Shown here: piece after piece, positions 3,434-63,990 of the stretch
Layout of the letters: each line of letters starts with the position of its first letter
Numbering within the stretch: the first letter of the stretch is position 1
Assembly: GCA_964543385.1 (NCBI GenBank)
Contig: CAZIYE010000001.1
Coordinates: 486,755 to 550,754, forward strand
Direction of reading: 5' to 3'
DNA length: 64,000 bases
From: an uncultured Candidatus Saccharibacteria bacterium
Lineage (GTDB): Bacteria; Patescibacteriota; UBA1384; XYA2-FULL-43-10; 1-14-0-10-43-13
Notes under the pieces: model-generated
What the model saw: only the letters and a program-made list of their open reading frames with translations
The model's database searches: none
What the model was told of the DNA's origin: nothing
Translations under genes and position numbers: made by a program

Positions 3434-6400
3434 CTAGAATCCGATATGGGTCCAGGCAACTGTTTGAGGATTTTGCCATATGCCCATGCGGGTATCACTT
3501 TCACATCCGTTACCTTTTTTTGATCCACAAATACCACCGCATGAGATTGAGTCGTTTCCTAATCTGGGCTGGCACATATTCACCGTTATCATCCCTGCTT
3601 GATCAAAATAATCTACATCTTCTTTTCGGCCTGTCATAATCTGGATTGGATATATCGGCTCATTGTCAGTTGTATTATATTTCTCGTAATTTTGGATCCT
3701 CATCATATTTTCTATCAATTTTCTTGCCTTATTCTGAGAAGCCTCAACCATTTTCTTTTTGAGTAGTTCGTTTATGTTGTTATTTTGCTTGATTTGTCCG
3801 CCCCATACTCCCATACCAGTTGTATCATTTATCTTTGGCTGAGGAGCTTCAATCTTTGGATAATATCCATCAGCAGTACAGTAATAGTAAATTTTTTGAC
3901 CCAAAAGATATCCTGCCAAAGCTATAACTACTGCTGCTGTCCACCCCACCGGACCAAGACCAAGCAAAGGCGCGACCACGAGATTATAAACAGCCACAGT
4001 TATCAAAGGAGTCAGGGTGCCAGGGATCATTCCCAAGCTATCTTCTACTCCCGCGATTTGCTTGTCTAAAAGCTTTTCTACTGCAATTGATACAATTTTG
4101 TATACCACTAATGTTTCCGCAGCAGTAAAAGCTTGTTTTGCTGCATCTTTGGCTTCTGCTAAGTCAGAGATCTTATTTAATTCCATAAACTCTTTAGCGT
4201 TGCTCGACAGTTGAGCAATATCTTTCACTCTTGAAATCTCTTCATATATCTTCCAAGACTTATAAAGATCATAACCAAGTTTAAATATTTCAAGAGACTG
4301 TCCAGCTTTAAGGCCCAGTGTTTTATCTGCCCAAGTAAAAAGCTTTGTCGTAATAACAGTAGTTAATACCCCCCCCACAGTTGGCAGAGACATAGTTGAA
4401 CCATCAGCTACAATTGTATTATGTGTTGTGCTATCACCTTTAACAATGTTATCTAGAGTTATTGATTTCAAGCCCCAGTCGCCGGTACCGACACCGACAA
4501 GAAGTCCTTTGGCCAAATCTCCACTTATTGGGAAGCCAAACCATTCCTCGGAATTATCTGAGAGGAAGTTGCTGAAGAAATCAAATCCATTACCACTTGC
4601 AAACGTTGTAAAGGCATCTTTATCTCCGGCCACAAAATCCTTAGCAAATTTTGCTACCTGGATCCATTCGTCGACATTTTTAATTGCCTCAAAATTTTTG
4701 CCTAGTAAATGGCCATTTGTAAGGCCTGTTTTAATATATCTGGCAAGGGCAGCTGCCTTTATCTCAGCATTACCCTGAAGCAGGTCTCTGGCCATGCCTG
4801 GGTAAGAGTTCTCGTCTAATTTCCAAAGAGCAATATCGAGCATCTTGAATTGGAGATTATCCAAAGAAGCTTTTCTTATTGATTTCTGTACCGTTGTTAG
4901 TAATTCTCCATTTTTGGGAGTAAAGTTTGCACCGCTTGGTTGATAATAAGATTCTGGATTAGAAAGTCTGTCCAATCTGCCTTCTGGGTCTCCATTGTTT
5001 TTATTATATTCAGAAACACATTTATTATATTGGTCTCCACTCGCTTGGTTGGTCGATTTCTGGCAGGCCGCTGGAGCGGCTGCATTATTGCTCACAATGC
5101 TTGTATTTAACTCGTCGATCTTACTTTGCAAATTCTCCGGCGAATAATTATATTGTTCATCAACTTGATTAGTTACTGATGTTGAAGTCGATGTTTCAGT
5201 ATAATTTTTCCCCAGAGAATCGATCAAGGCATCACCGAAATTGCCGCTACCTGTTTTTGGGCAATTATCACCATTACATACCTTTCTTGTTTCCGGATTA
5301 CTGTAAATACCATTAACATCAACCCAAGCCGCCCTCTGATATGCTTCGACATCAGGCGCCCCTATTATAGAAGTTTTTATGTCATCATAGGCTATGCGCA
5401 TCTCTTGTGGAATTGCAGTCTTACACTCGTCGTCTCCATTTGCTGAGCAGTGACTTTTCCTTATATTGTCTATAGGAGCCATAACATAATTAACTCCTAG
5501 AGAAATCGCTGCAATTTGGAAATACTTCATATCCCCACTAACTAGATTAGCGATATCTTCCAAAGGCATATCAACGCCGACTCTTATCTCTTTATTATTG
5601 TAATTTGCCTTAACGTTATATATAAAATCGTGAATTTTATCACTCAATACTTCTTTACCCCATGCGACGATGTCCTCTTTAAACGATCCGTCAACATTTC
5701 CCGAAGGATTTTGGGAGATTGCGGCCTTGCAGATATTATATCGATCGTTGATCTCCTTGCTGAGGGTGGTTCTGGCCTGTTGGACTTCAGTGAGCGCAAC
5801 CTTTAAATCTTCCTGCCATTTTTTATATTCGCTAGAGTTAATATAATCATCCGTTTTTTGCCCATTCTTTGAAACAGGCTTCTGTTTTTCAAGTTCGGCA
5901 AGCTTGGCTTCTGCATTATGCAGACTAGTATCAAGCGGCGATACGGTAGGGTCCGAACTTGCTTCATTTAAACAGTCTTTTGTCTGTCCTGTCGGGCCAA
6001 AAGAAACATGAACAACGCGACTATACAATCCCGTAAAAGAAGCAGCTTTTGAAGAATCAAGCCCAAATTGGTAGTCTATTTTCTGCGCACCAATTTCCAT
6101 CAAAATAGTTCCTGAGTTCATTGGATCAGCAATAATTCTTTGGAAGGTTCCCTCAGGCAAGTTTGCTCTTTCATCAAGCTGAAAAGTGAATATCTGATTT
6201 AAATGATCATATAACTTATCCCACTTCCCATACCATTCGTCTGTTGCCGAACCAGTTCGACAAACTTTTTGTCCGTCGGTTTCGATTATTTTCCCCTGGC
6301 ACTTGAAAATATTATTTAAGTTCTTAACAAGAGTAAGAGCTGTCTCTGACTGATTTTGGTCTAAACCAAGGCTTTCTCCTATTTTGCTACCAACAAGTTT

Positions 6401-9400
6401 CAATCCTGTTTGTTCGCCAACTAGTTGATTGTATTTATCTGGAGTCATACTATTCAAGCCAGCCAAGAGGTCATAAGTAGAGTTTGAGCTTATACCAAAC
6501 TGTTTATCTAAATAATTCAACTGCTGATAAAACTCTATATTCCCAGAATTATTTTGTTGACTCTTGCCTGCAACAGCCAGTGCAGATTTCAGTCGATCTT
6601 TGATTTTTTGATCGATATTGTTAATTGCAGTAAGGGCCGGGCCATTTATAACCAACGATCCCCTTAAATGATTTTGAATTTGCCGTGCTTTGTATTCGGC
6701 GCCAGTATTTTTAATTTTCTTGGCATAGCTATCGCCAAAGATATCTACCAGGGATTTCTCATCAAAAATTTCTTCACCATTATCATCAGAGAGGGGAATG
6801 TTGAAAGATAGAGCGATATTGATAGCGCGGGACCTATCAAAGGCTTCACCGAATGTTGCCCCAAAGAATGTTCCTCTTGGAAGATTCAATGATTGCTCAA
6901 CTTTTGATTGTCCGAAGTTCGATACAAAATCACTAATTTTTTCGCCTTTTAGCGGGAAATAATCTAGGCCGATTAAGCTTCCAAGTATAGATCCGCCAAC
7001 TTGATTTAGAGTACAGTTTCTTGATATTTGGTCTTTTGCATTAAATACCGATAGGACGGTCCCGGGCTTTAAATTTAGCTCCTGATCGATATAGTTAGTA
7101 CTTATTCTGTATAACGATGTAAAATCACCGCCAAGGACATTGTAGAGGTCGTCGGGCCCAAATAATGATGGGTCAATGTTTAGGCCTGAAGCATCAAAAA
7201 TTTTATAGTTAATTACTTTTTCTGCAACTGCTCTACCAACTAATAGTTTGTAATTGGGAACTGGTAAATTTGTGCTGTCTTTGATAAACAATTTACTTAG
7301 AATCTTTTTATCAATATTATTTTTATTGCCTATAGCATCGATAAGTTGTTGGGTTTTTTCTTTATTATTTCCAAATGCATATTGTACATTTTTATCAGTG
7401 ATAAAAGACAACAGGTTATTTCTAATATCAGAGATTTGTGACTTATCACTCGCACTGTCTGCTAATCTTTGGGCTAATTCCTCCAATATATTGCCATATC
7501 TTTGGTCTTTGTTAATCAGTGAATATCGCTGGGCTTCTTCGGGGCTTTTGAAACAATGACGACCCTTCTTGTCGTAATAACAGAAGGAGTTATTCTCTAG
7601 GCTGGTTTCATTTATCGAGAATCCATCCTGTTTAGTATAAGAAACAGGGCATTGATTGCTATCAGATGCGGTATCAGCATAAGGGTTTACAAATACATAG
7701 TCTGGGTTTAATACATCGTCGTTATATTGATCAAGCTCGCTAGGTAAGATCTTGCCGCTTACTAATTTTGTATAAATATCAAGAACATTCTTGCTTATCT
7801 TTAGATTGTTCTCGAGCAAATTTTGTTCATCGCTAGACAGATTTACAGAGTAAAGATTCTTGTCCTTAGTAAATAGTGACTTCGTATCACCGTCTTCTAG
7901 GCCAAGAAGATTATCAATAGACAGGGCCTCTGAAAGTGCTTTTTGCCATGCCAAAACACCTCCAGATTTTAGTGCTTCGTAGTTTCCGCTACCAAGCCCT
8001 AATCGCATCATCAAGTCGCTTTCAGCAGATTTTAATGCATCGTTAAATCCTCTATCCTTAATATTTTGAACGATACTATCAGTATTAAAACTGTTTGCAT
8101 TTGTCTTGCTGCCAAATTGTTCAATTATTTTGTCTTGTTTTTGCTTCCAATTGTCTCTTGCTGAGGCAACCAATAAATCGTAATCAGGCCAGTTTTCAGC
8201 CTGCATCTGGCTCAAAACGTTTAATAATTTATTGCTACTATTAATACCCGTTATATCGGTAGGTAATTCCCCCAGCGGCGATTTGGCTTTATTCAATTTA
8301 CTTGCCAGGTAACTGTTTACTGCTTCATCAATCTTAGTTTTGTCTGCATACTTTAATAATTCTGAGGCATTTGTAGCAAAATCAGCCATTGTAGAGACCG
8401 AATTCTTTTCCTGAAAATAGAATGGTGGCATCGAAAAGACTTCCTCAATCTTAGCTTGGCCGATAGACTTGAAGAACGCGTCACTTCCCCCCATTCCTTT
8501 TTTCTCGAAATTCTCAACTAAATATAAGAGAGAGTTACTTGGTAAACCAAGCTTTGATTCTGCCATATTGGCACCAAATGAGATAAAAAGATCAGTCGGC
8601 GATACATTACCTGCCAAGAACCCAAATATTAGAGAGGAGGCCTTAAACGGCGAGATATTATTATTTCCTCCTCCGCTATCATTGCTAGTCAGATCCATAC
8701 TATTTATTTGAGAAAGTTTAAGGGAGTCCGAAGTTGGTATCTCTCGGCCGGATATGATTTCAGAAGATATCCTAAGGAGTTCGTTGGCATTAAAGATAAT
8801 AGAATTCAGTTCATCAATCTTGTTATTTGCCTCTGCCTTGGCGGTGGTGAAGTTCTTAATTGAATCTAGCTGGGTGACTATAGAGTCAATCTGGCTTGTT
8901 GCAGAACTCATTTTCTCCCACGTATTTTGTATTTTTATTGTATTTGCATCACTAGATTCAAAAACATTTTTGAGATTACTAATTAAATCATTAATTTCAG
9001 TATATGTATTCTCGAAACCTGAATCCTTGCTTGCAAAGATTTTCCAATCACCCTTAATATCAGCCAATAATTTTTGTGCCTGATTCAATCTTGATGTATA
9101 AAATGCGATAGTACTGTTGCTAATTCTTAATTCTGGATTCGTGTTTAATAAATCTATTTTGGTTTTGTCTTCTTTGTTGATTAATTTGTTTGCAACACCT
9201 GTATATAAAATTTGTGAACCGATCCTCTTGAAGACGGGGCTATTATTAGCTGTAGAACAACCAAAGATCCTTTGCAGGTCAAGTTTCTCGAGCCCAGCTA
9301 GCATGGACTTTTCTTCTGTCACAATAAAATCATCAGTTCGTGTTTCCACATTTTGGTCAGAGTATACTAGTGAATACTCAACTTTTTGTGTTATTGGAAT

Positions 9401-11854
9401 AGCTGGTAGAGCGTTAGAAATCTTAGAACTGCCTTGAAAAATAATTTGTCCCTCTGGTGTAATTTCATAGTCTAGAGTTTTGTTTAGCTTTGGGGCACTA
9501 CATTCGTTGCTTGATTTTTGAATGTTTCCACGAAGCCACTGTCGGAAAATAAATCTGCCAAATTCATCTGGATTAATATCTTGTGTTACGCCCCCTTCGA
9601 TAACTCGGATTTTTTTATAACTCTGGTCTGAGCTTCCCTTTGGTGCTACGCTATCATCTGCTAGGAGCCGTGCCAGAGTGTAGATGCCGATAGTTGATAG
9701 GCTCTCATGATCACCACTTAGCGCTCCCTCCCAAGTGTCTCTAATATCCGGTTGTTTCTCTGTTGGGCCTGGTAATTGATAAGCACCATTATTCATTGAA
9801 AAATATTTTAAACCATAGAGTGTGTCATCAAGTCTCTTCTTGCCTACCATCGCAGCAAAATCTGCAGAATTGATTCTTTCTAGAATAAAATTATTTGCCG
9901 TGCCTGCACCAAGATTTAGGTCATTATCAATCAATCCAGGATTGTTTTTAATCAAAGTCGACCTCAATGAGCCGATTTTATCCGAGAGGTTGCCGAAGGT
10001 TACTGCTTCTTTCGGCCAAGAGTTGCCTGCTAGATTCAAATCTTTTTCGATAACTTTTGCGCCTACATAGTTAGCGAAAACATCATTTTTTGAAGTAACA
10101 AAGGCATCTAAATCACCAGCGTTCAGATTCATCTCATGTTCTAACTTTCTCTGGCCAATCTTGATGAGAGTTGATGGCAGGTCACTACCTGATAGCGAGC
10201 CAAAAGGTATTCCTAGCTTCTTCTCAATTGCTGATCGGCCGATAGTGTATTTTATTTTCTCAATGTCTGAAAGATTCTGACCAATAAATATTTCTCTTGG
10301 CAACCCTAAATAATCAGCAACATAAGTACTTCCTAGCTTCTTGAGGGTATCTTCTACATTAAATCCGGCAAAGTTCAGACTCTTCGATTCTAAGACATTA
10401 CCTAACAGGGATTTTCCTAATATCTGAATTATATCTTCAAAATTAGCCTTGCTGAGATCTCCTTCATAAGAAGAGATGTCGCTATTCAAGTTGCCCAGCA
10501 AACCATTGACTGATTCGGAGGCAGCCGATTTTAGAAGACTCATCATATCAAATGGATCTCTCTCTCCGGATGCATTCCAGCCGTCGGTAGTTTGCCAAGC
10601 TAATTTAATTGGTTGTATCGGTTGTTTATATTTCTTTGTGCCTCCAGTGTTCTTTTTAACAACCTTCGTACACCTGATATCATCGATCTCTGATATATCT
10701 ATAGCTTGCCCTTCAGCATGAGAGGACAGATTGCGTTCCTCTACAAAAGAGTCCTCCTTTTCGGTAAGGCTAGTTAGGTAGGCCTCATATTGAGCACCAT
10801 TCTTATCTTCAATTTCAAGATCTGGGGTCGTTCCTTTTTGTTTGCCACAGTCAGCGGCAGTCATTTCATCGCTACAACCTTTAGACACAGACTTTTGGCT
10901 ATTAGCCAGAGTTTGTACCACAGAATCAGATTCTGTTGATTTATCCTGCCTTTGCAGAATGCGATTAACTCTTATTCTCCAGTGGCCAGCCCCACCCTGA
11001 TTTTTTGGAGTAATTAGGTAGACCAAGGTTTTAAGAACCCTTACATCAATATTCAGCGAGTCTATAGATTCTTTTAGTTTTTCTGCTAAATATGGCTTAT
11101 CGTGGTTAACATAATTAATAATTCTTTCGCGCCCGATTCCTGTCACACAAACCAAAGTGTCTAAATCAACAGAAGGAACTTTTCCTTTTTTTAAATTATC
11201 TTCTTCATCTGCCCAAATATCTCTTATTTTATTTTCGCCAACATTCTTTCTTGCAGCTTCGGCAAGACGATTAAAAAGTTGCAGATTGTCGAATCTCTCA
11301 GTAGAGGTTAGGTTATCTCTTCCGATCTTCAAATATTTTAAATATTCAATTGGCGTCTTGAAATCTTTGTTAGATTGCAAATTTTTATCTACGATCTCTG
11401 TTTGATCCTTAGGCAAGTTTTTATATAGGGCATCAAAATCTTCATCAAAATTTGGGAGTATATTGGAAAGACAGGAAAGTGATTTCAAGGCCGCTAAATC
11501 ACTTTGTTTCATAATTATTTTCTGTTCTGATGAATTTGTTAACAGATCATCAAAAGTAATAAGGCTATCTTGATCGGAGAACTGAGCCATTGTTTCTAAT
11601 AATTTCTTATATGCCAAAGAGTCGCTCAGTGTTTTTTTTACCTTACACTGCTGGTTATCTTTAGTTGGTATATAAGAATACTTTTTCTGATCAGCAACTT
11701 TTATTAGCAAAGGAATCTCTGGATCATAATCAATCTCTCCATCGTTGTCATCGGCTGCTTTTGCATTCAAGGCAAAAGCATATCCTGTGGATCCAAATGC
11801 GATTGATATTATCAATAAGTAAATAACAGTCTGTTTTAAAATATATTTCAACAT
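3434..11854 (-). CDS. Giant (~2,806 aa) secreted or surface-anchored protein with an N-terminal signal peptide, coiled-coil-rich body, two C-terminal TM helices and a Cys-rich tail
   Basis: It is a single uninterrupted 8.4 kb ORF. The likely start is MLKYILKQTVIYLLIISIAFGSTGYAFALNA (signal peptide), whose ATG overlaps the stop of the upstream M23 gene (TAATG). The C-terminus has hydrophobic segments 'LTPLITVAVYNLVVAPLLGLGPVGWTAAVVIALAGYLLG' and then a Cys-rich tail (CGGICGSKKGNGCESDTRMGIW). It is the last gene of the T4SS-like operon. An alternative start at 11887 extends it by 11 aa. Confidence 0.8.
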   Translation of the reverse strand: MLKYILKQTVIYLLIISIAFGSTGYAFALNAKAADDNDGEIDYDPEIPLLIKVADQKKYSYIPTKDNQQCKVKKTLSDSLAYKKLLETMAQFSDQDSLITFDDLLTNSSEQKIIMKQSDLAALKSLSCLSNILPNFDEDFDALYKNLPKDQTEIVDKNLQSNKDFKTPIEYLKYLKIGRDNLTSTERFDNLQLFNRLAEAARKNVGENKIRDIWADEEDNLKKGKVPSVDLDTLVCVTGIGRERIINYVNHDKPYLAEKLKESIDSLNIDVRVLKTLVYLITPKNQGGAGHWRIRVNRILQRQDKSTESDSVVQTLANSQKSVSKGCSDEMTAADCGKQKGTTPDLEIEDKNGAQYEAYLTSLTEKEDSFVEERNLSSHAEGQAIDISEIDDIRCTKVVKKNTGGTKKYKQPIQPIKLAWQTTDGWNASGERDPFDMMSLLKSAASESVNGLLGNLNSDISSYEGDLSKANFEDIIQILGKSLLGNVLESKSLNFAGFNVEDTLKKLGSTYVADYLGLPREIFIGQNLSDIEKIKYTIGRSAIEKKLGIPFGSLSGSDLPSTLIKIGQRKLEHEMNLNAGDLDAFVTSKNDVFANYVGAKVIEKDLNLAGNSWPKEAVTFGNLSDKIGSLRSTLIKNNPGLIDNDLNLGAGTANNFILERINSADFAAMVGKKRLDDTLYGLKYFSMNNGAYQLPGPTEKQPDIRDTWEGALSGDHESLSTIGIYTLARLLADDSVAPKGSSDQSYKKIRVIEGGVTQDINPDEFGRFIFRQWLRGNIQKSSNECSAPKLNKTLDYEITPEGQIIFQGSSKISNALPAIPITQKVEYSLVYSDQNVETRTDDFIVTEEKSMLAGLEKLDLQRIFGCSTANNSPVFKRIGSQILYTGVANKLINKEDKTKIDLLNTNPELRISNSTIAFYTSRLNQAQKLLADIKGDWKIFASKDSGFENTYTEINDLISNLKNVFESSDANTIKIQNTWEKMSSATSQIDSIVTQLDSIKNFTTAKAEANNKIDELNSIIFNANELLRISSEIISGREIPTSDSLKLSQINSMDLTSNDSGGGNNNISPFKASSLIFGFLAGNVSPTDLFISFGANMAESKLGLPSNSLLYLVENFEKKGMGGSDAFFKSIGQAKIEEVFSMPPFYFQEKNSVSTMADFATNASELLKYADKTKIDEAVNSYLASKLNKAKSPLGELPTDITGINSSNKLLNVLSQMQAENWPDYDLLVASARDNWKQKQDKIIEQFGSKTNANSFNTDSIVQNIKDRGFNDALKSAESDLMMRLGLGSGNYEALKSGGVLAWQKALSEALSIDNLLGLEDGDTKSLFTKDKNLYSVNLSSDEQNLLENNLKISKNVLDIYTKLVSGKILPSELDQYNDDVLNPDYVFVNPYADTASDSNQCPVSYTKQDGFSINETSLENNSFCYYDKKGRHCFKSPEEAQRYSLINKDQRYGNILEELAQRLADSASDKSQISDIRNNLLSFITDKNVQYAFGNNKEKTQQLIDAIGNKNNIDKKILSKLFIKDSTNLPVPNYKLLVGRAVAEKVINYKIFDASGLNIDPSLFGPDDLYNVLGGDFTSLYRISTNYIDQELNLKPGTVLSVFNAKDQISRNCTLNQVGGSILGSLIGLDYFPLKGEKISDFVSNFGQSKVEQSLNLPRGTFFGATFGEAFDRSRAINIALSFNIPLSDDNGEEIFDEKSLVDIFGDSYAKKIKNTGAEYKARQIQNHLRGSLVINGPALTAINNIDQKIKDRLKSALAVAGKSQQNNSGNIEFYQQLNYLDKQFGISSNSTYDLLAGLNSMTPDKYNQLVGEQTGLKLVGSKIGESLGLDQNQSETALTLVKNLNNIFKCQGKIIETDGQKVCRTGSATDEWYGKWDKLYDHLNQIFTFQLDERANLPEGTFQRIIADPMNSGTILMEIGAQKIDYQFGLDSSKAASFTGLYSRVVHVSFGPTGQTKDCLNEASSDPTVSPLDTSLHNAEAKLAELEKQKPVSKNGQKTDDYINSSEYKKWQEDLKVALTEVQQARTTLSKEINDRYNICKAAISQNPSGNVDGSFKEDIVAWGKEVLSDKIHDFIYNVKANYNNKEIRVGVDMPLEDIANLVSGDMKYFQIAAISLGVNYVMAPIDNIRKSHCSANGDDECKTAIPQEMRIAYDDIKTSIIGAPDVEAYQRAAWVDVNGIYSNPETRKVCNGDNCPKTGSGNFGDALIDSLGKNYTETSTSTSVTNQVDEQYNYSPENLQSKIDELNTSIVSNNAAAPAACQKSTNQASGDQYNKCVSEYNKNNGDPEGRLDRLSNPESYYQPSGANFTPKNGELLTTVQKSIRKASLDNLQFKMLDIALWKLDENSYPGMARDLLQGNAEIKAAALARYIKTGLTNGHLLGKNFEAIKNVDEWIQVAKFAKDFVAGDKDAFTTFASGNGFDFFSNFLSDNSEEWFGFPISGDLAKGLLVGVGTGDWGLKSITLDNIVKGDSTTHNTIVADGSTMSLPTVGGVLTTVITTKLFTWADKTLGLKAGQSLEIFKLGYDLYKSWKIYEEISRVKDIAQLSSNAKEFMELNKISDLAEAKDAAKQAFTAAETLVVYKIVSIAVEKLLDKQIAGVEDSLGMIPGTLTPLITVAVYNLVVAPLLGLGPVGWTAAVVIALAGYLLGQKIYYYCTADGYYPKIEAPQPKINDTTGMGVWGGQIKQNNNINELLKKKMVEASQNKARKLIENMMRIQNYEKYNTTDNEPIYPIQIMTGRKEDVDYFDQAGMITVNMCQPRLGNDSISCGGICGSKKGNGCESDTRMGIWQNPQTVAWTHIGF

Positions 11855-13578
11855 TATTGTCCAAGAACTTTCTTCATATTGTTCCACAAATATTCGCCCC
11901 AGGATTTTCCTTCAGTCTGCTCATATTCAATCTTATCGAGAAGTGTTGTGGTGACGGGGACACCACAATAACTAAGCTCGAGATGCAATTGAGAATAGTC
12001 TGATATTGTAGCCACCTTACCTATAGTCTTGTCCCGAGTGACGCCGGTGCCTTCTCCGACATTCTTATCCAAGTCAACATGGGCGTATAGAATTTCATAA
12101 TCACCATTTTTAATAACAATCTTCTTATGACCTGTTCCATCGTCTGAAATATTAGTGACCTGGCCGTCGAACATTGGGTAGACCAAAGTATCCTTATTAG
12201 TATAGAGGTCAACTGCATCAGCTTTACCCTGACCATAGTACATGTATGTACTATGTCCGCTTTCATTGCTAGGCATTTCTTTTCGTAAGGGAGTGCCATA
12301 ATGGAGCTCCCAATTAAACCCAGATATATTTTCTAATGGAAGTCTGGTCTTTGCTTGCATAATAGGAGATTGCTGGTCAGCTGATTCCAAAATAGATTTT
12401 ACTGAAGTTATAATCTCTCGTCCAAGAACAGGGTCGTTATTTACTAAATACTGGTCGATTTTGGATGAAGTATCAGCTATTTTGTTTTTAGTTTCTTGAT
12501 TTGATGATGATACATCTGTTCCGGTGGATGCTTCCAATTGCGATAGTTGCTTTTGAATATCGGAAAATGTTTGGTTATTTAATTTAGCTTTTGCCTCTTT
12601 ATCACCTGATGCCATAATTGTTTTCTGAATCGCAGCGGAATCTGTAACAGGATCCGCAGGCTTATTAAATGTTGATCCTGCTTTTCCAGTCCCAGCATCT
12701 CCTATAATGGCAGACATAATTGCAATGCCCGCTACAATGATGACAATTGCCAAAATAATCCACGGTAAATATGGCAAGATTGCTTTCCATAGGGCAGCTA
12801 GGGCTTCTTTGGAAAACTTTTTCTTTAATTTATCAATTATCTTTTTACGTGCTTCCTTATTTAACCAATCCAGCCAAGAAGACTTCTGCTGGTTTTGTGC
12901 TTGATCATCTTGGGATTTTTTTTGCTCAGCTGCGTCAGAATCAGCTTTCTCTTGGTCTAATCTTTCTTGATCAGGATTATTTCCATCGTTTTCCTCATTA
13001 CCATCACTCTCTTCCGATTGTCGTGCTCCCATAACCTGGATCGTCATGGAGCCAGGAGTACCGCTCTTGCTACCAATGGCAGTAATATATAAAACTCCAT
13101 TCTCACACTCGGGGCTAGTTTTGATAATAAATGACTTACTTGAACCATCCTCAGTCTGGTCACTCACTCCATGGAATACCCCGCTCACCCCACCTTCGGC
13201 TTCCCAGAAATATCCTTCATCCTCGGTAAAATCTATAGTTCCGCCTGACAAAGTAACACTCTGATTCGGGCCGACCGACGATGGACCGTCAATAATAACT
13301 ACTGGTTGGATAGGAGATACAAGGGCTCCTCTCGTTACTGCAGGCGATCCGCTTACGGCTTTTTGGCGCGCCTCACGAAGTTTTGAATTGAAGAGGTTTA
13401 GCAATTCTTGTGCCTTCTTCTTGTTTTTTATTTTTTTTAGCTGCTCACTAAAATAGCGGCTGGCTTGTGCACTATTCCATGCGCCGCTTTTTACTTTATT
13501 TATATAAGAAGGTATTGATCTTTCTACAAACCTAATGAATTTTGCTTCTTTGTCGTCCACAAACCCCTCCATTATCAC
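11854..13578 (-). CDS. Membrane-anchored M23 (LytM-type) peptidoglycan endopeptidase-domain protein
   Basis: A central single TM segment (LPWIILAIVIIVAGIAIMSAIIG) is present. The C-terminal ~130 aa carry M23 motifs: GHSTYMYYGQGKADAVD (HxxxD region), VYPMFDGQVTNIS, KIVIKNGDYEILYAHVD, and IGKVATISDYSQLHLEL (the HLH(F)E-like second His motif). The N-terminal half is acidic and low-complexity. Confidence 0.7.
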   Translation of the reverse strand: MIMEGFVDDKEAKFIRFVERSIPSYINKVKSGAWNSAQASRYFSEQLKKIKNKKKAQELLNLFNSKLREARQKAVSGSPAVTRGALVSPIQPVVIIDGPSSVGPNQSVTLSGGTIDFTEDEGYFWEAEGGVSGVFHGVSDQTEDGSSKSFIIKTSPECENGVLYITAIGSKSGTPGSMTIQVMGARQSEESDGNEENDGNNPDQERLDQEKADSDAAEQKKSQDDQAQNQQKSSWLDWLNKEARKKIIDKLKKKFSKEALAALWKAILPYLPWIILAIVIIVAGIAIMSAIIGDAGTGKAGSTFNKPADPVTDSAAIQKTIMASGDKEAKAKLNNQTFSDIQKQLSQLEASTGTDVSSSNQETKNKIADTSSKIDQYLVNNDPVLGREIITSVKSILESADQQSPIMQAKTRLPLENISGFNWELHYGTPLRKEMPSNESGHSTYMYYGQGKADAVDLYTNKDTLVYPMFDGQVTNISDDGTGHKKIVIKNGDYEILYAHVDLDKNVGEGTGVTRDKTIGKVATISDYSQLHLELSYCGVPVTTTLLDKIEYEQTEGKSWGEYLWNNMKKVLGQ

Positions 13579-57977: not shown

Positions 57978-58080
57978 ATATTTATCAAGAGTGGCGCGAG
58001 AGTTTTGGCTCTATGACCGCCCAGCAACCTCAAGGAAACTTGAACGGTGCTAATTCCAAGCCTCACGGCGAGATAAAACA
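57978..58080 (+). ncRNA. SAM-I (S-box) riboswitch aptamer upstream of metK
   Basis: Core elements in order are UUAUCAAGAG (P1 5' strand) and GGCG..AGAG-UUUUGG-CUCU (P3 hairpin), then AUGA..CCGCC..GCAACC and GGUGCUAAUUCC, closing with P1 3' GAUAA at 58072-58076. Spacing agrees with the Rfam SAM-I consensus as remembered. A T-run (58107-58113) follows, but no convincing terminator stem was found. Confidence 0.75.
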
Positions 58081-58136: not shown

Positions 58137-59321
58137 ATGGAAGAGCCAAAAAATAAAAAAGTAAATAATTATCTTTTTACCTCAGAATCAGTGACCGAGG
58201 GCCATCCAGATAAAATGGCTGATCAAATCTCAGATGCTATTTTAGACGAATTACTCAAAAAAGATCCACTTTCGAGGGCAGCTGTCGAAACTATGCTGAC
58301 AAACGGAGTTTGCATTATTGCTGGCGAAGTCACAACTGACGCTTATGTTGATATTGCAAAGATAGCTCGATCTGTCATCGAAGACATAGGTTATGACGGT
58401 TGTGGCTTTCACCATGCTTCCAGCGGCGTTATGACAGCAATCAAGGAACAATCATCGGATATTGCCCGTGGCGTTGATAGCTTCGAAAGAGTTGACGGCA
58501 AAATAGTAAAGGAAGATTTAGAACAATTGGGTGCCGGCGACCAAGGCTTGATGTTTGGCTATGCATGCACAGAGACCAAAGAACTTATGCCCTTGCCGAT
58601 AACTTTAGCTCATGCTCTCTGTGAGCGTTTGTCAAAAGTAAGAAAAGCAGGGATCATAATGGGCTTATATCCTGATGGAAAATCTCAAATAACCATTAAG
58701 TATAAAGATAATAAGCCGGTAAGGGTACATACAATTTTGATTGCTGCTCAGCATGAAGAGGAAAAAGATCAAAAAATCTTGCAAAAAGAGATTATTGATT
58801 TTGTTATTAAGCCGGTTCTTGCAATTTATGATCTTGGTATTGATAACGAGACTAATATTTACATCAATACTACCGGAAAGTTTGTCATAGGGGGCCCACA
58901 AGGGGATACAGGACTTACTGGCAGAAAGATAATAGTTGATACTTATGGCGGCTACTCTCGTCATGGCGGCGGTGCTTTTTCTGGCAAGGATCCTTCAAAG
59001 GTTGATAGATCTGGATCGTACATGGCTAGATGGGTAGCTAAAAGTGTGGTTGGCTCAGGTCTGGCAGAGAGATGTGAAATACAAATATCATACGCTATAG
59101 GCAAGCCAGAGCCATTATCAGTTTATGTAGATACTTTTGGAACTGGTGTCATCCCAGACTCCGAGATCAAACAGAAGATACTTGATAACTTTGATTTTAG
59201 GCCAGGTATGATAATCAAAGAACTGGATTTGCGAAGGCCTATTTATCGACAATTAGCAGCTTACGGTCATTTCGGCCGCCCGGATCTTGATCTGCCTTGG
59301 GAAAAGATTAGAAAAATATAA
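58137..59321 (+). CDS. metK: S-adenosylmethionine synthetase
   Basis: '[52 protein letters not shown]' and '[29 protein letters not shown]' are diagnostic MetK motifs. An RBS 'aaaggat' lies 6 nt upstream. Confidence 0.95.
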
Positions 59322-59444: not shown

Positions 59445-60878
59445 CTATTTTGTATCAGCTTTTATAAGCGATCTAACCGATTGTAAGCTGATAATATCGA
59501 AGAGATATGCGAGAACAAAAAAGAAAGCAGCTGAAATTATCATACTCGGAATAAAATGAAGTGCTAAAATTTTTAGAATTAGAGCAAAAGCCAAAGTTAC
59601 TATTGCTATAAAAACAGTTTTTACAACATTGATGAGGTCAATTTTGAACGGTATGATTCTTCTTGTGTTATAGAGGAAAATAAAGAATAAAACAATCTCC
59701 GATATCAATGTACCGTAAGCGGCTGCCATATATGAATATTGGGGTATAAATACCAGATTGAAGATAAAATTAAAGAGTAAAATAAATGCAGAAATCTTTA
59801 ATAGCAATTTTCTCTCGTCTTTTGCTATTAAAATTTCTCCAAGCAGGATATCAAAATACAGAAAAGGCAGTGCAAGAGAAAGTATTATCAACGCCGATCC
59901 TCCGATACTATAGCTTTCGTTACTCAAGAAGGCGATTATTTCTTTTGAATAGGCGCAGGATATAGCTGCTATTGGTAGAGAAATAAGCATCATCGCTGTA
60001 AATGATTTTTCAATCAGGCTTTTTAACTGGGATGCATTATCTATACCGCGAGAGATAATCGGTTTGAGTGAATTTGCAAAATATGAACCGAAGAAGACAG
60101 TTACCTCTAAAATTTTGTAGGCTACAGAGTAAATACTAACTGCCACTGCTCCCTTGATTGCAAACAGCATAATAGTATCAAGTCTGAAGAATAGGTTATT
60201 GGCAATAAATATTATGCCCATCGGCCAAGCCAGATCAAATATCCATTTGGTAATTTTTTTCTCATAACCAATTTTGATAGGTGTAAACTTGCTGGCGAAG
60301 TACCATTTGAAGACAAAAATTAGAATGCCAGACAATGCTACCACCGAGAAGACAATCCAGAGGAAGTTGCCTTTCAGAGTCACAACTACAATTAGCGCAG
60401 CTAAGGAAATAAGCTTGCTCAAAAATTCTGCGACAGCTGAAAATTGCATCTTCAGTCGGTGTTGCAAAATCATATCCCCAATACTACCCATTAGGTTGAA
60501 GAATAGAAAACCACAAGCAATCATTATCCCAAAAACAAGATTATGGTCATTGCGATATGGTGTTAGATATATAATGGCAATTGCTGCAAGACAGGCGAGC
60601 AAAGATGAGACTAAACGTATAAAGAAAACATTCGAGATGATTCTTTTCTCGCTGGAGGGATCTTTTGAAATCTCTCTGACGGTTACGGAAAATAGACCAA
60701 GATCAGCAATGACGAGAAAATAATTTACATAAGCTGTGATTGTATTGAGATTCCCATAATCAGTGTTTGAGAGATAGTTTGTTAGGATCTTTATAGAGAT
60801 AAGGGTAAACACCAAAGTAACGATTCGTACAAGAATCTGGGAGGCCGTATTTATAAATATAGCTCTACGTTCTTTCAT
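59445..60878 (-). CDS. Wzx-like polysaccharide flippase (MOP superfamily)
   Basis: The 477-aa product has ~12-14 TM. The N-terminus 'INTASQILVRIVTLVFTLISIKILTNYLSNTDYGNLNTITAYVNYFLVIADLGL' is typical of PST/Wzx proteins. Confidence 0.8.
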   Translation of the reverse strand: MKERRAIFINTASQILVRIVTLVFTLISIKILTNYLSNTDYGNLNTITAYVNYFLVIADLGLFSVTVREISKDPSSEKRIISNVFFIRLVSSLLACLAAIAIIYLTPYRNDHNLVFGIMIACGFLFFNLMGSIGDMILQHRLKMQFSAVAEFLSKLISLAALIVVVTLKGNFLWIVFSVVALSGILIFVFKWYFASKFTPIKIGYEKKITKWIFDLAWPMGIIFIANNLFFRLDTIMLFAIKGAVAVSIYSVAYKILEVTVFFGSYFANSLKPIISRGIDNASQLKSLIEKSFTAMMLISLPIAAISCAYSKEIIAFLSNESYSIGGSALIILSLALPFLYFDILLGEILIAKDERKLLLKISAFILLFNFIFNLVFIPQYSYMAAAYGTLISEIVLFFIFLYNTRRIIPFKIDLINVVKTVFIAIVTLAFALILKILALHFIPSMIISAAFFFVLAYLFDIISLQSVRSLIKADTK

Positions 60879-62161
60879 TATTTTAGATCCAGAGTTTTTA
60901 CCATTTTACGGAGATGATTATTTTTTCTTCCACTTATTATTATAGTAGTTAGAGCGACAAGAAGTATCAAAATAACGCTGGTTAATATGATTGAGGCTAT
61001 ACGGAAATCGATTTTGTCATACCACTTTTTGACTTGTTCTTTTGCTTGTACAACAATAGGCTCTTTTGCATCATCAGCAGTTAATACGTTTATTACCCCA
61101 CCCTTTTTCTGTGAAATTTCAAAATAAGTAGGATCACTTTCTGGAGTCAATATTTTTTCATTTTGACCCTGAACTGTGAGTTTGTAACGGCCGGCTTTGA
61201 TAGGGAAGTCAATCAGTAGCGCAAATTTACCAGTTTCATCAGACTTTACTGACAGGGTTTTACCTTCAGGTAAGGTAATCGCTGGGTCAAGTTTGAGATT
61301 AGCAGTAAAATTCGGCTCGGTGATCCCTACTATTTTAAAGCCTGAGAAAGTACCATCTTCAATATTATTGATATAATCATCAGTCTTTGTAAATTCGATC
61401 CGACTAGGTTTCGCTAGCCCTTCTTGTATTTTTGGATCTGGTTCCTTGATTGTAACTTTAAAATGAGTTACAGGGCTCCAGCCATCGCTATTTTTGGCTT
61501 TAATATGGAAATAATAAGCTCCGATTGCTTTGCCATCATAAGTGACAGTGGTATTGGCATCGATTACTGTCGATGGAGGAGTGGTATCAGCAACTTGATC
61601 AAGTAAATATGCAAACCCAGTTACATTGCTGGCTTTTGTCCAATTTAGAGTAATCGAGGTACCATCATAGGCAACGGCCTGATCGGGGTGGGTTGTGGAG
61701 GTAACTGCGGTAGCCCCAGGTAGTTCGAGTGCGCGCTGGATAGGGAAGGAGGCGCTGCCTCCGGATGTACCGAGAGTAGCTGACCCATTTTTAAGAACTA
61801 CGTTAGAAACTGAGACTGACCCAGTACCAACCCCTGTGGCTTTTAATTTGATAGTAGCTACAGTAAATGATGTTACCTTCTGACCAAGTAGGGCTCCGGA
61901 AAATGAGCCGTTGGCAGACGGTTGAGTTATCCAATTGGCGCTACCTGCTGAGAAAGAAACAACTGAAAGCGGTCCGGATACAGCAATCTTGCCTTGGAAG
62001 GCGTTGAATTCTCCGCCGCTCGCTACAATATTAGCAGTAAAAGTTTGCCCGACAGTCTTGCTTCCACCTCCACTGACTGATATTCCGGCAGCAAAGACAT
62101 GACTTGGTAGGATAAGAGCCAACAAAGTAATAAATGCTAAAGTTGATATTATTTTTTTCAT
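60878..62161 (-). CDS. Surface protein with a signal peptide, cohesin-like N-terminal beta-sandwich domain, Ig/FN3-like middle domains and a C-terminal TM anchor
   Basis: The signal peptide is MKKIISTLAFITLLALILPSHVFA. 'ISVSGGGSKTVGQTFTANIVASGGEFNAFQGKIAVSGPLSVVSFSAGS' resembles the cohesin pattern (G.tV.V.V.....V.a.Q..I.yd...L.vvsv). The C-terminus 'IASIILTSVILILLVALTTIIISGRK' is a TM anchor. ATGA overlap with the flippase gene implies co-transcription. Confidence 0.55.
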   Translation of the reverse strand: MKKIISTLAFITLLALILPSHVFAAGISVSGGGSKTVGQTFTANIVASGGEFNAFQGKIAVSGPLSVVSFSAGSANWITQPSANGSFSGALLGQKVTSFTVATIKLKATGVGTGSVSVSNVVLKNGSATLGTSGGSASFPIQRALELPGATAVTSTTHPDQAVAYDGTSITLNWTKASNVTGFAYLLDQVADTTPPSTVIDANTTVTYDGKAIGAYYFHIKAKNSDGWSPVTHFKVTIKEPDPKIQEGLAKPSRIEFTKTDDYINNIEDGTFSGFKIVGITEPNFTANLKLDPAITLPEGKTLSVKSDETGKFALLIDFPIKAGRYKLTVQGQNEKILTPESDPTYFEISQKKGGVINVLTADDAKEPIVVQAKEQVKKWYDKIDFRIASIILTSVILILLVALTTIIISGRKNNHLRKMVKTLDLK

Positions 62162-62214
62162 ATTAGATCCCTTCTTTTATGTGTATTTTTGTTTTTATTT
62201 TATTACTGTAGACG

Positions 62215-63444
62215 CTATTTTCCCCAATTCTCTGCAAAGATAGCGAGATCTGTGATATCCACAACATTATTTCCATCTATATCAGTCATTGGCTCTGTAG
62301 GACCTTCTTTTCCCCAATTTTCTGCAAAGATAGCGAGATCTGTGATATCAACTACACCATCGTTGTTTATATCAGCAGTTTTGTGTCTTACTACGGTAAT
62401 AGGTTTGATACCAACTTCAGCCCCAGCTTCATTCTTAAAAATAATAGCGGCGTTTGTGGTCCCAATTCCTGGCTCAAATGTTAGAGACCATGAAGTAGTA
62501 TTTAAGTCTGCCAAAACAGCGTCTCCGTAGTAAGCTCTGGAAGTTAATGTTTTCTCTCCTGTATAAGTAACTACTGCGCGGTAAGTACGTCCGTTGACAG
62601 GGACAATATCGTTAGAAAGAGGCGGCGGCGGAGGAGGTTCACCAGCTGCAGGATCGCCGAAATAACTGGAGAAAATATTATAAAAGCTTGTTTGGATATG
62701 TGGAGTGTAGAGATAAAGTATTCTACTGCCGGCAGTTTGGCACACAACCGATTGACCATCGATAGTTGTAGGATCATAGTACTGTTGCCAATATCCGCCG
62801 GTACAATTTGATCCAGTGCCACCGATACAACGCCCACCATTTTTGTATGAATTATATTTGCTCCCAAACCAGCCAATTGAGTATCCGAGCTGGCGCCCCA
62901 TGCCACCAAAATCAAGCGAAATTTGGCGATATGCCGAATCGTTGCAATTTACTCCGCTATTTAAACAACCTGCCATTGTCTCGTCATACATATAGAACAT
63001 CGGCCATGTAGCTACTGTTGAACTTCTAAAAACATCTCCGGTGATAGCAGAACTTTCTTTTTGCAGTGTTGCTAGGACTACTCTAGGATTAATATTATGC
63101 TCAACAGCTTCATCATAAATCAACTGTGCTACAGTCTTGCCATAGAAGGCATTACCATTTATATCGTTTATCTGTCTGGAGGTCACAGTGCCAAATCCAC
63201 CAGCGGCAAGAGGATACGGAACATCGATATATTCAGGAATAACGTAATTAGCCAGCTTGCTGCCTTTAGAGACCAGGAAATCATTTATCGCCGTTGCTGT
63301 CATAGGGTTACTATTATTGGAAAAGTTATAATCGCTAATAATGTTGGCATTATCAAGAGTTGCCGATACTGAGCCGGGATTTAATCCAATAGCAAACACT
63401 ATTGCCGATGTAAGAAATATTAATTTTGAAATCTTTGACTTCAT
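62215..63444 (-). CDS. Secreted protein with an N-terminal putative cell-wall-hydrolase-like domain and two C-terminal dockerin-type repeats
   Basis: The signal peptide is MKSKISKLIFLTSAIVFAIGLNPGSVSA. The C-terminus has two tandem 'DINNDGVVDITDLAIFAENWGK' segments matching the dockerin type I Ca-binding repeat (D.N.DG.V..tDl..l). A poly-Pro linker 'EPPPPPPLS' is present. N-terminal 'INPRVVLATLQKESSAITGD' is weakly glucosaminidase-like, at low confidence. Confidence 0.6.
   Translation of the reverse strand: MKSKISKLIFLTSAIVFAIGLNPGSVSATLDNANIISDYNFSNNSNPMTATAINDFLVSKGSKLANYVIPEYIDVPYPLAAGGFGTVTSRQINDINGNAFYGKTVAQLIYDEAVEHNINPRVVLATLQKESSAITGDVFRSSTVATWPMFYMYDETMAGCLNSGVNCNDSAYRQISLDFGGMGRQLGYSIGWFGSKYNSYKNGGRCIGGTGSNCTGGYWQQYYDPTTIDGQSVVCQTAGSRILYLYTPHIQTSFYNIFSSYFGDPAAGEPPPPPPLSNDIVPVNGRTYRAVVTYTGEKTLTSRAYYGDAVLADLNTTSWSLTFEPGIGTTNAAIIFKNEAGAEVGIKPITVVRHKTADINNDGVVDITDLAIFAENWGKEGPTEPMTDIDGNNVVDITDLAIFAENWGK
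62217..62378. repeat. Direct DNA repeat (two ~72-nt units with 90-nt period) encoding the two dockerin repeats
   Basis: Units at 62217-62288 and 62307-62378 share a 40-nt core 'ttccccaatt(c/t)tctgcaaagatagcgagatctgtgatatc' with 1 mismatch. Confidence 0.9.
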
Positions 63445-63456
63445 TTCCCTCTGCTT

Positions 63457-63990
63457 TTATTGTGGTTGGCTGCCTATATAATCTTTTTGTAAGACATCCA
63501 ACCTTGATTTTAAGAGATCACTCTCAGGATTAGCGGCAAGGCCGGCTTCCAACGTGCTTATAGCCTGATCTTTTTGTCCTAAATTGTATTGAGCCTGAGA
63601 CTTGCGGTTGTAATAATCCGGGACCTTATTATCAATATTAATCGCTTGACTAAAGTTTTCTACGGCTTTGTCCCAACTCTTTTCGGTCATCAAGGTTTGT
63701 CCCTCACTGAAGTAATCATTTGCACTTTTTGTTTCTGGTATGGCATCGATCTTTCCAGTATCTTGATTTGTTGATGGTACGTTATCGATAGCAGTTATAG
63801 TGCCAGGACTATTATCAATATTTGCCAAATCCTGTGTTTTTTGATCATTCCTTTTATGGAGATACAAAAAGATTGCCAATACAATGAGTGAAATTACCAG
63901 AATAATAGTCAGAATAAGGATCAACCTTTTGGGACGACCTTTAAAAAAGTGACCGCTGGCATTTTTTATATCTGCTTGCTCTTTCATCAC
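63457..63990 (-). CDS. Membrane-anchored TPR-like repeat protein
   Basis: An N-terminal TM 'LILILTIILVISLIVLAIFLYL' is followed by TPR-like helices in the C-terminus (WDKAVENFSQAINIDNKVPDYYNRKSQAQYNLGQKDQAISTLEAGLAANP). Confidence 0.5.
   Translation of the reverse strand: MMKEQADIKNASGHFFKGRPKRLILILTIILVISLIVLAIFLYLHKRNDQKTQDLANIDNSPGTITAIDNVPSTNQDTGKIDAIPETKSANDYFSEGQTLMTEKSWDKAVENFSQAINIDNKVPDYYNRKSQAQYNLGQKDQAISTLEAGLAANPESDLLKSRLDVLQKDYIGSQPQ

Follow-up and report, generated by a model that had tools for sequence, protein, structure and literature searches.

A dockerin-bearing secreted protein and its membrane-stalk neighbour in Patescibacteria: a predicted cohesin-like tip and a possible surface tether for a putative wall enzyme

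Docking between cohesins and dockerins is known mainly from cellulosomes, and the few non-cellulosomal cases that have been described have mostly unclear roles. The question raised by the locus discussed here is whether two neighbouring genes of an ultra-small uncultured bacterium encode such a docking pair outside the cellulosome, and what the pair would be used for. The locus lies in a stretch of 64,000 nucleotides (nt), hereafter the window, from an uncultured Candidatus Saccharibacteria bacterium (GenBank assembly GCA_964543385.1, contig CAZIYE010000001.1, positions 486,755 to 550,754). An earlier note, made from the sequence of the window alone, had drawn attention to two adjacent open reading frames (ORFs) and proposed that their products form a cellulosome-style pair of surface proteins. 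Both ORFs are present at the positions given there. They lie on the minus strand, so that gene A, which encodes a secreted protein made of a putative enzyme domain and a dockerin, stands upstream of gene B, which encodes a membrane-anchored stalk protein with a cohesin-like tip (Table 1).

The reading favoured here, to which a probability of roughly 0.58 is given, is that A and B form a non-cellulosomal surface tether of one cohesin and one dockerin, which holds a putative wall enzyme and is conserved across the lineage. In the proposed mechanism, B would be exported by Sec and retained in the membrane through its C-terminal transmembrane (TM) helix, with an Ig-like and then an FN3-like domain building the stalk and the cohesin-fold domain standing at the distal end. 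A would be secreted, and its type-I-like dockerin, with two Ca2+-binding F-hand repeats, would plug into the cohesin-like domain of B in a Ca2+-dependent manner. In this way the enzyme would be kept at the surface of the cell, at a fixed height over the membrane, where its N-terminal domain (A_N) would most likely cleave peptidoglycan, with Glu130 as the candidate catalytic residue, and would most likely serve to remodel the wall or envelope of the cell itself. The idea of a docking pair finds support in the match of B to the cohesin fold, the ligand set of the dockerin, the synteny of the two genes in 46 of 46 loci, the symmetry between the dockerin repeats and a covariation that centres on the N-terminal domain (N-domain) of B. 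Neither of the two findings that the earlier note had named as refuting the idea arose, as a cohesin fold is predicted for the N-domain of B and the dockerin repeats have their Asp/Asn ligands. The label "cellulosome-style" was overstated, given that the system comprises a single cohesin and a single enzyme and lacks a carbohydrate-binding module (CBM).

A gene pair kept together across related loci

Homologues of A and B were found in metagenome-assembled genomes of Berkelbacteria and Patescibacteria. The conservation of their pairing was followed in 46 loci, that is, 45 fetched genomic loci encoding B homologues and the window itself. In all 46, B is preceded on its own strand by an ORF that ends in a two-repeat dockerin, the gap between the two genes having a median of 53.5 nt and not exceeding 150 nt in 37 loci. 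According to a profile hidden Markov model (HMM), the upstream dockerin proteins carry A_N in 43 of the 46 loci; this overturned an impression gained with tblastn that only the dockerin, and not the enzyme domain, is conserved upstream of B. The reverse test gave the same picture, as three of three divergent A homologues (40-44% identity) are directly followed by a B homologue (E 1e-84 to 1e-128). The flanking genes are kept far less strictly than the A-B pairing. As for the flippase gene that follows B in the window, 8 of 45 loci have it immediately downstream of B in the same orientation, 16 have it no more than about 3 kb downstream, and another 10 have it at some other place in the locus; a homologue of the TPR gene that precedes A is present upstream of A in 15 of 45.

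The C-terminal domain of A is a real dockerin and is type-I-like. A has a signal peptide, in line with the secretion stated in the earlier note, and the two C-terminal dockerin repeats described there were recovered, each with 22 residues and with the correction that the two repeats are similar only, and not the same peptide twice. Both repeats carry a full set of Asp/Asn ligands for Ca2+ at loop positions 1, 3, 5, 9 and 12, with D,N,D,D,D in the first repeat and D,D,N,D,D in the second. Across the family, position 12 is Asp in both repeats of 45/45 orthologues; position 1 is always Asp in the first repeat (45/45 orthologues), whereas in the second it is either Asp or Asn. In the AlphaFold model, the dockerin helices are placed at residues 367-375 and 397-405 with a predicted local distance difference test score (pLDDT) above 96. 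The poly-proline linker had been thought to lead directly into the dockerin; in the model it separates the enzyme domain from a beta-sandwich of about 70 residues, the best Foldseek match of which is the Fn3-like module of CbhA (3pe9, E 2.8e-4).

In the HMM search, A matches Pfam Dockerin_1 (PF00404) with 22.9 bits, exactly the gathering threshold of 22.9, a score that would be marginal if taken alone. Among the members of the A family, 47 of 68 match Dockerin_1 (best E 1.5e-12), and the family profile, when compared with the sequences in the PDB, finds 2y3n_B as its best match (E 1.9e-5), followed by 4fl4, 2vn5, 2jnk of Clostridium perfringens and 1daq. The borderline score of the window protein is the point that could be raised in favour of a chance resemblance or an annotation artefact, in which EF-hand-like, Asp-rich repeats happen to stand beside a generic beta-rich ORF. 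Such an explanation is refuted by the hundreds of full-length homologues of both A and B, the match of the family profile to solved dockerins, the confidence of both AlphaFold models and the recurrence of the arrangement in every related locus. Chance in particular can be set aside because the same order of genes returns in 46 of 46 loci.

At the DNA level, the duplication that underlies the repeats joins positions 62211-62285 and 62301-62375, i.e., 75 nt at 81% identity, and is not the near-identical duplication of 72 nt that had been reported. Near identity is limited to the part that codes for the helix, which is 95% identical between the two repeats of this genome and in which 11 of the 13 synonymous third positions agree; the corresponding identity is 79% in the closest relative and 65% as a mean for the family. 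This indicates a recent, gene-conversion-like local homogenisation of the repeats that is specific to this lineage, and homogenised repeat DNA of this kind was seen only in this genome and a few others. The repeats had been described as either recent or under concerted evolution. The first option holds in the form of a recent homogenisation in this genome; concerted evolution across the family was rejected, as third-position identity is 0.52 within a gene versus 0.44 between genomes.

Several departures from the standard arrangement were also observed among the loci. ORFs of 97-124 amino acids (aa) lie between A and B in four genomes (L008 9666-9971, L009 9549-9917, L014 9675-9968 and L019 8602-8976), and these look like mobile or selfish insertions. 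Two dockerin-coding segments are found upstream of B in two loci (L018, 1418-1576 and 2435-2602; L027, 5789-5962 and 8816-8980), and in some genomes a single anchor may therefore have two cargo proteins available. The protein that adjoins B in L027 and L035 is long (949 and 1,105 aa, respectively) and is without A_N. The first ~50 residues of the A_N profile (ISD..F..MSA..IN.FL..KGS.LANY) are placed after the main part of the domain in nine loci (L005, L006, L008, L009, L013, L014, L017, L019 and L024), which is a domain-order permutation within the family. One B homologue of 303 aa (L051 5660-6571), which follows one of the three A homologues of the reverse test, is without the Ig-like domain and keeps the cohesin-like N-domain, the FN3 domain and the TM helix.

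The tip of the stalk and its predicted fold

All the parts that the earlier note had read in B were borne out, namely the signal peptide, the beta-rich N-domain, the FN3/Y_Y_Y-like and Ig-like segments and the C-terminal TM helix. The order of these parts in the sequence corresponds to the topology of a type I membrane stalk, the tip of which is formed by the cohesin-like domain. Homologues of B number 196 at E <= 0.001, and the best 120 of the 196 all match over nearly the full length. Within a set of 49 homologues, 26 match Pfam Y_Y_Y and 16 match fn3. In public annotation, a B homologue appears only as a "fibronectin type III domain-containing protein", and the dockerin in A homologues is recognised.

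The N-domain of B (residues 25-150) was modelled with AlphaFold from 66 homologues, and the resulting model is all-beta, with 10 strands and a pLDDT of 89.1. Cohesins have the fold of a flattened beta-sandwich of nine strands. When it was compared with the PDB by Foldseek, the first match was 2xdh of Archaeoglobus fulgidus (E 8.7e-7, TM-score 0.70) and the second was 2vo8 of C. perfringens (E 1.4e-6), followed by two chains of the Ruminococcus flavefaciens ScaB structure 5n5p (E 1.6e-6) and then by 3l8q, 5m2o and 5aoz. Cohesins make up the top four and seven of the nine best matches, with E-values from 9e-7 to 1e-4 and TM-scores from 0.57 to 0.70, and a cohesin fold is therefore what the model predicts for this domain. 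Antibody V domains reach a TM-score of only about 0.4. Separately, the sequence profile of the N-domain (residues 29-117) gave weak matches to antibody VH sequences (E 0.002-0.1) through a SGGG..G....S..ASG.TF-like stretch, a resemblance that is probably coincidental in view of the poor structural match.

Positions 10 and 11 of the dockerin repeats, which are the classical contact residues for cohesins, are variable across the family (IT, IS, LL, ST, IQ, VQ and others). Within one protein they tend to agree, as repeat 1 equals repeat 2 at position 10 in 36 of 42 proteins and at position 11 in 31 of 42, against 16.4 and 15.2, respectively, expected from random pairing. Internal symmetry between the repeats has been described as a trait of dual-binding type I dockerins (PMC12484212). 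The covariation of dockerin positions with the alignment columns of B was measured as entropy-corrected mutual information, and the values for the N-domain were compared with those for the FN3 and Ig domains taken together by a Mann-Whitney test. Mutual information was higher in the N-domain for positions 10-11 of repeat 2 (p 6e-14), positions 10-11 of repeat 1 (p 1.6e-8) and positions 18 and 19 of repeat 2 (p 1.7e-10); the control loop positions 2 and 4 gave p-values of 0.11 and 0.0024 in the same test.

A number of results weigh against a cohesin at the tip of B, and most of them also favour an alternative in which A and B do not bind each other. B would then be a generic stalk or adhesin whose resemblance to cohesins reflects a CnaA/Ig-like convergence, the dockerin of A would bind some other protein, an S-layer or a glycan, and the adjacency of the genes would reflect co-regulation. 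All cohesin tests at the sequence level failed. Pfam PF00963, the search for which the earlier note had proposed as a check, has no match at E <= 1 in B or in the 49 homologues, and the profiles of full-length B and of its N-domain find no cohesin among the PDB sequences. The alignment of the N-domain with a CipA cohesin profile of seven sequences by hhalign gave a probability of 0.12%, a negative result that is weakened because this profile is thin, as a search for homologues that started from the CipA cohesin 1aoh gave only 10 proteins. In addition, a CnaA-like CLIPPER domain (9ifr; PMC12617251) and Als adhesins are also among the Foldseek matches, with E-values only 10 to 100 times worse than those of the cohesins. 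A mirror-tree comparison of the dockerin with the domains of B gave partial r values of 0.48 for the N-domain, 0.43 for the Ig domain and 0.15 for the FN3 domain, and hence did not single out the N-domain. The mutual-information test takes columns as independent and controls phylogeny only in part, and the covariation is supportive, not decisive. Moreover, the search for other cohesins covered 64 kb of the genome, and within the window there are one dockerin and one cohesin-like domain.

Against an absence of binding stand three observations. Cohesins are both the best and the most numerous structural matches of the N-domain. The pairing of A and B is invariant in the forward test and in the reverse test between proteins that are only 40-50% identical, and is tighter than that of either gene with the flippase or TPR gene. 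Furthermore, it is mainly the N-domain that covaries with the recognition positions, and for the control positions the covariation is weak. An arrangement in which A and B do not bind each other is considered rather unlikely. As for the cohesin assignment itself, the predicted fold has stood, with cohesins as the best structural relatives, and the sequence-level assignment has not; according to the model, the N-domain is cohesin-like at the level of fold only and does not qualify, by its sequence, for membership in PF00963.

The putative enzyme and its genomic setting

If the tether holds an enzyme, its nature depends on A_N. This domain has no match in Pfam, NCBIfam or PHROG, and its model has no fold match in the PDB by Foldseek, so that the identification of a catalytic domain by HMM or structure, as had been envisaged, led to no known family or solved fold. 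When 1.84 billion cluster representatives were searched with a profile of the domain, 4,796 relatives were found at E <= 1e-3, of which 4,127 also reach E <= 1e-10, and by this measure A_N is a large unnamed family. Among 64 relatives that were sampled, 12 are fused to a PcsB coiled coil and eight to a Peptidase_S11 DD-carboxypeptidase; PG_binding_1, lectin and Ig modules and the N-terminal regions of RipC, PcsB and DIP1281 also co-occur with it. Where A_N follows a coiled coil of the PcsB/RipC type, it occupies the slot of the catalytic domain of PcsB and RipC. Because of these fusions to wall-related modules, A_N is most plausibly a peptidoglycan hydrolase.

The conserved residues of A_N include a candidate for catalysis. 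The invariant residues are Glu130 (LQKESS; motif QKE(S/Q)), for which this was found in three alignments, Gln185 and Tyr246-Thr-Pro; His249 is almost invariant. The Glu-Ser motif is reminiscent of lytic transglycosylases. On the other side, no similarity of A_N to any characterised hydrolase was detected, and the only hints of a hydrolase lie below threshold (SLT_4, E 0.065, in 3 of 68 members; a PHROG transglycosylase, E 0.054), which also counts against the proposed mechanism.

The proposed tether would have a parallel in other bacteria, in which autolysins are retained by means of modules such as a PcsB coiled coil, LysM or SLH. A more far-reaching proposal, put forward tentatively and with the odds against it, is that A_N represents a new and widespread family of peptidoglycan hydrolases and would be the main autolysin of Berkelbacteria and their close relatives, with its position set by a membrane stalk that bears a minimal cohesin-dockerin plug, cryptic at the sequence level. 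If this were true, control of the FtsEX-PcsB type would be functionally replaced in these organisms, and cohesin-dockerin docking would be a core mechanism of the envelope or of division and not an accessory of polymer degradation.

The neighbours of the pair bear on the wall that the enzyme would act on. They are envelope-glycan genes, coding for Wzx, Wzy_C, DUF4012 and glycosyltransferases. Along the series of TPR, A, B and flippase genes, the spacings are 12 nt, 53 nt and an overlap of 1 nt, the start codon of the flippase gene sharing one nucleotide with the stop codon of B (TAATG). The minus strand shows no terminator-like site over the length of the four genes. Co-transcription of the four is plausible, and the TPR gene, which ends 12 nt upstream of A, is probably the first gene of the transcription unit of A and B. 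Just past the right end of the window (L046 1-3329), the TPR gene is preceded by a Wzy_C gene (O-antigen polymerase/ligase-like) and a DUF4012 gene, and the pair is therefore set in an envelope-polysaccharide neighbourhood. In this setting, the A/B pair looks like a housekeeping module.

The same tether might also carry a weapon or feeding tool that acts on the wall of another cell, host or prey, as would fit an epibiotic lifestyle. Patescibacteria are often episymbionts, and the long stalk of B would keep the enzyme away from the membrane. In addition, an essential dockerin-domain surface protein has been described in a saccharibacterium, for which a targeting of host glycans was speculated (Wang et al. 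2023, PMC10633639). This saccharibacterial protein, SEML1_0315, was rejected as a homologue of A; it is a 927-aa Ig-repeat protein. Outside the lineage, the combination of A_N with PcsB/RipC-type coiled coils or with a DD-carboxypeptidase corresponds to housekeeping wall-enzyme architectures, which also argues against a host-directed use. A housekeeping role at the cell's own envelope is favoured over such a weapon because the pair is single-copy and invariant and stands among the cell's own envelope-biogenesis genes (Wzx flippase, Wzy_C and glycosyltransferases). A host-directed enzyme thus appears quite unlikely, and no support was found for the link to an epibiotic or parasitic lifestyle that the earlier note had drawn, the pair being located in an envelope-biogenesis neighbourhood.

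Table 1. Coordinates of genes A and B, of their predicted parts and of the two adjoining genes in the window
Feature	Position in window	Strand	Basis
Membrane TPR protein gene	63457..63990	-	Pfam TPR_2
Gene A, secreted protein with putative enzyme domain and dockerin, 409 aa	62215..63444	-	ORF; AlphaFold model, pLDDT 93.7
A, signal peptide, residues 1-28	63361..63444	-	Read from sequence; predicted cleavage after VSA; model helix at residues 2-20
A, A_N domain, residues 29-268, unnamed mostly helical family, putative peptidoglycan hydrolase	62641..63360	-	
A, poly-proline linker EPPPPPPL, residues 269-276	62617..62640	-	
A, Fn3/Ig-like beta-sandwich spacer, residues 283-353	62386..62598	-	Strands in AlphaFold model
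A, dockerin repeat 1, DINNDGVVDITDLAIFAENWGK, residues 358-379	62308..62373	-	Pfam Dockerin_1, family profile, ligand residues
A, dockerin repeat 2, DIDGNNVVDITDLAIFAENWGK, residues 388-409	62218..62283	-	Pfam Dockerin_1, family profile, ligand residues
Gene B, membrane-anchored stalk protein with cohesin-like tip, 427 aa	60878..62161	-	ORF
B, signal peptide, residues 1-24	62090..62161	-	Read from sequence; conserved in homologue alignment
B, N-terminal cohesin-like beta-sandwich (predicted), residues 25-150	61712..62089	-	AlphaFold and Foldseek
B, FN3/Y_Y_Y-like domain with conserved THPDQ motif, residues 151-240	61442..61711	-	Weak Pfam matches in window protein
B, Ig-like domain, residues 241-352	61106..61441	-	Big_13 and Ig_J matches in 10/49 homologues
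B, C-terminal TM helix, residues 388-411	60929..61000	-	Read from sequence; hydrophobic stretch conserved there
B, basic tail after TM helix	60881-60928	-	
Wzx/Polysacc_synt-type flippase gene	59445..60878	-	Pfam Polysacc_synt, E 3.8e-23

Some other features of the window were recorded. An S-adenosylmethionine (SAM, S-box) riboswitch lies at 57979-58079 on the plus strand (Rfam RF00162, 59.6 bits), directly upstream of metK, the gene of S-adenosylmethionine synthetase (58137-59321, plus strand), which is an ordinary arrangement. A giant ORF of 2,817 aa (3434-11887, minus strand) has no Pfam domain at E <= 1e-3. Immediately upstream of it and overlapping its start is an ORF of 574 aa (11854-13578, minus strand) with a Peptidase_M23 domain, i.e., another wall-active enzyme.

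Comparison with known systems

No published description of the A/B pair was found in the literature. A fixed two-gene module of a membrane stalk and a probable wall enzyme, in an ultra-small uncultured lineage, offers a concrete and testable role for non-cellulosomal cohesin-dockerin pairs. The case of B also illustrates that cohesins can escape sequence-based annotation, and A_N adds a large uncharacterised enzyme family that likely acts on peptidoglycan. As the envelope biology of Patescibacteria is poorly known, the pair may give access to the question of how these bacteria retain and position their wall-active enzymes. In its working, the proposed tether would be like a minimal type I cohesin-dockerin pair.

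With the type I pairs of clostridial cellulosomes (CipA of Clostridium thermocellum; 1ohz, 2ccl and 1aoh), the pair shares two F-hand repeats of 22 residues with Asp or Asn at positions 1, 3, 5, 9 and 12, the symmetry at positions 10-11, the location of the dockerin at the C-terminal end of a secreted, here putative, enzyme, where it is preceded by a linker and an Fn3-like spacer, and a partner for which a cohesin fold is predicted. The differences are considerable. There is one cohesin per anchor here instead of a multi-cohesin scaffoldin, no plant-polysaccharide enzyme is involved, and neither a glycoside hydrolase family nor a CBM family was found in A or B. Furthermore, the N-domain of B is undetectable by PF00963 or hhalign, B is anchored by a C-terminal TM helix and not by SLH modules or sortase, and the host is a small-genome Patescibacterium.

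Structurally closest are the glycosidase/toxin complexes of C. perfringens (2vo8; dockerin 2jnk/2ozn) and the A. fulgidus protein 2xdh, in which single cohesin and dockerin modules join non-cellulolytic proteins. These systems supply the two best structural matches of the N-domain of B, and the C. perfringens dockerin is among the PDB sequence matches of the A family profile. In those organisms, the modules are carried by soluble enzymes or by proteins of unknown role, whereas here they are found on a membrane stalk and a putative wall enzyme that are invariant neighbours. The anchoring scaffoldins, such as OlpB and SdbA of C. thermocellum (SLH) and ScaE of R. flavefaciens (sortase signal), resemble the proposed arrangement of B in that a cell-bound cohesin captures a dockerin partner, and ScaB cohesins of R. 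flavefaciens (5n5p, 5m2o and 5aoz) are among the top structural matches of the N-domain. Unlike in these scaffoldins, the anchor of B is a TM helix, and the captured partner would be the enzyme directly and not another scaffoldin.

The last comparison concerns hydrolases of the PcsB/RipC type, in which a coiled coil that sits on FtsEX is followed by a CHAP or NlpC/P60 domain. A differs from them in having no coiled coil and an A_N that is unrelated in sequence to CHAP and NlpC/P60, B is not FtsEX, and the tether would be a cohesin-dockerin contact. What the two arrangements would have in common is a protein-protein tether that keeps a wall hydrolase at the membrane, and the relatives of A_N that follow coiled coils of the PcsB/RipC type form a further likeness between them.

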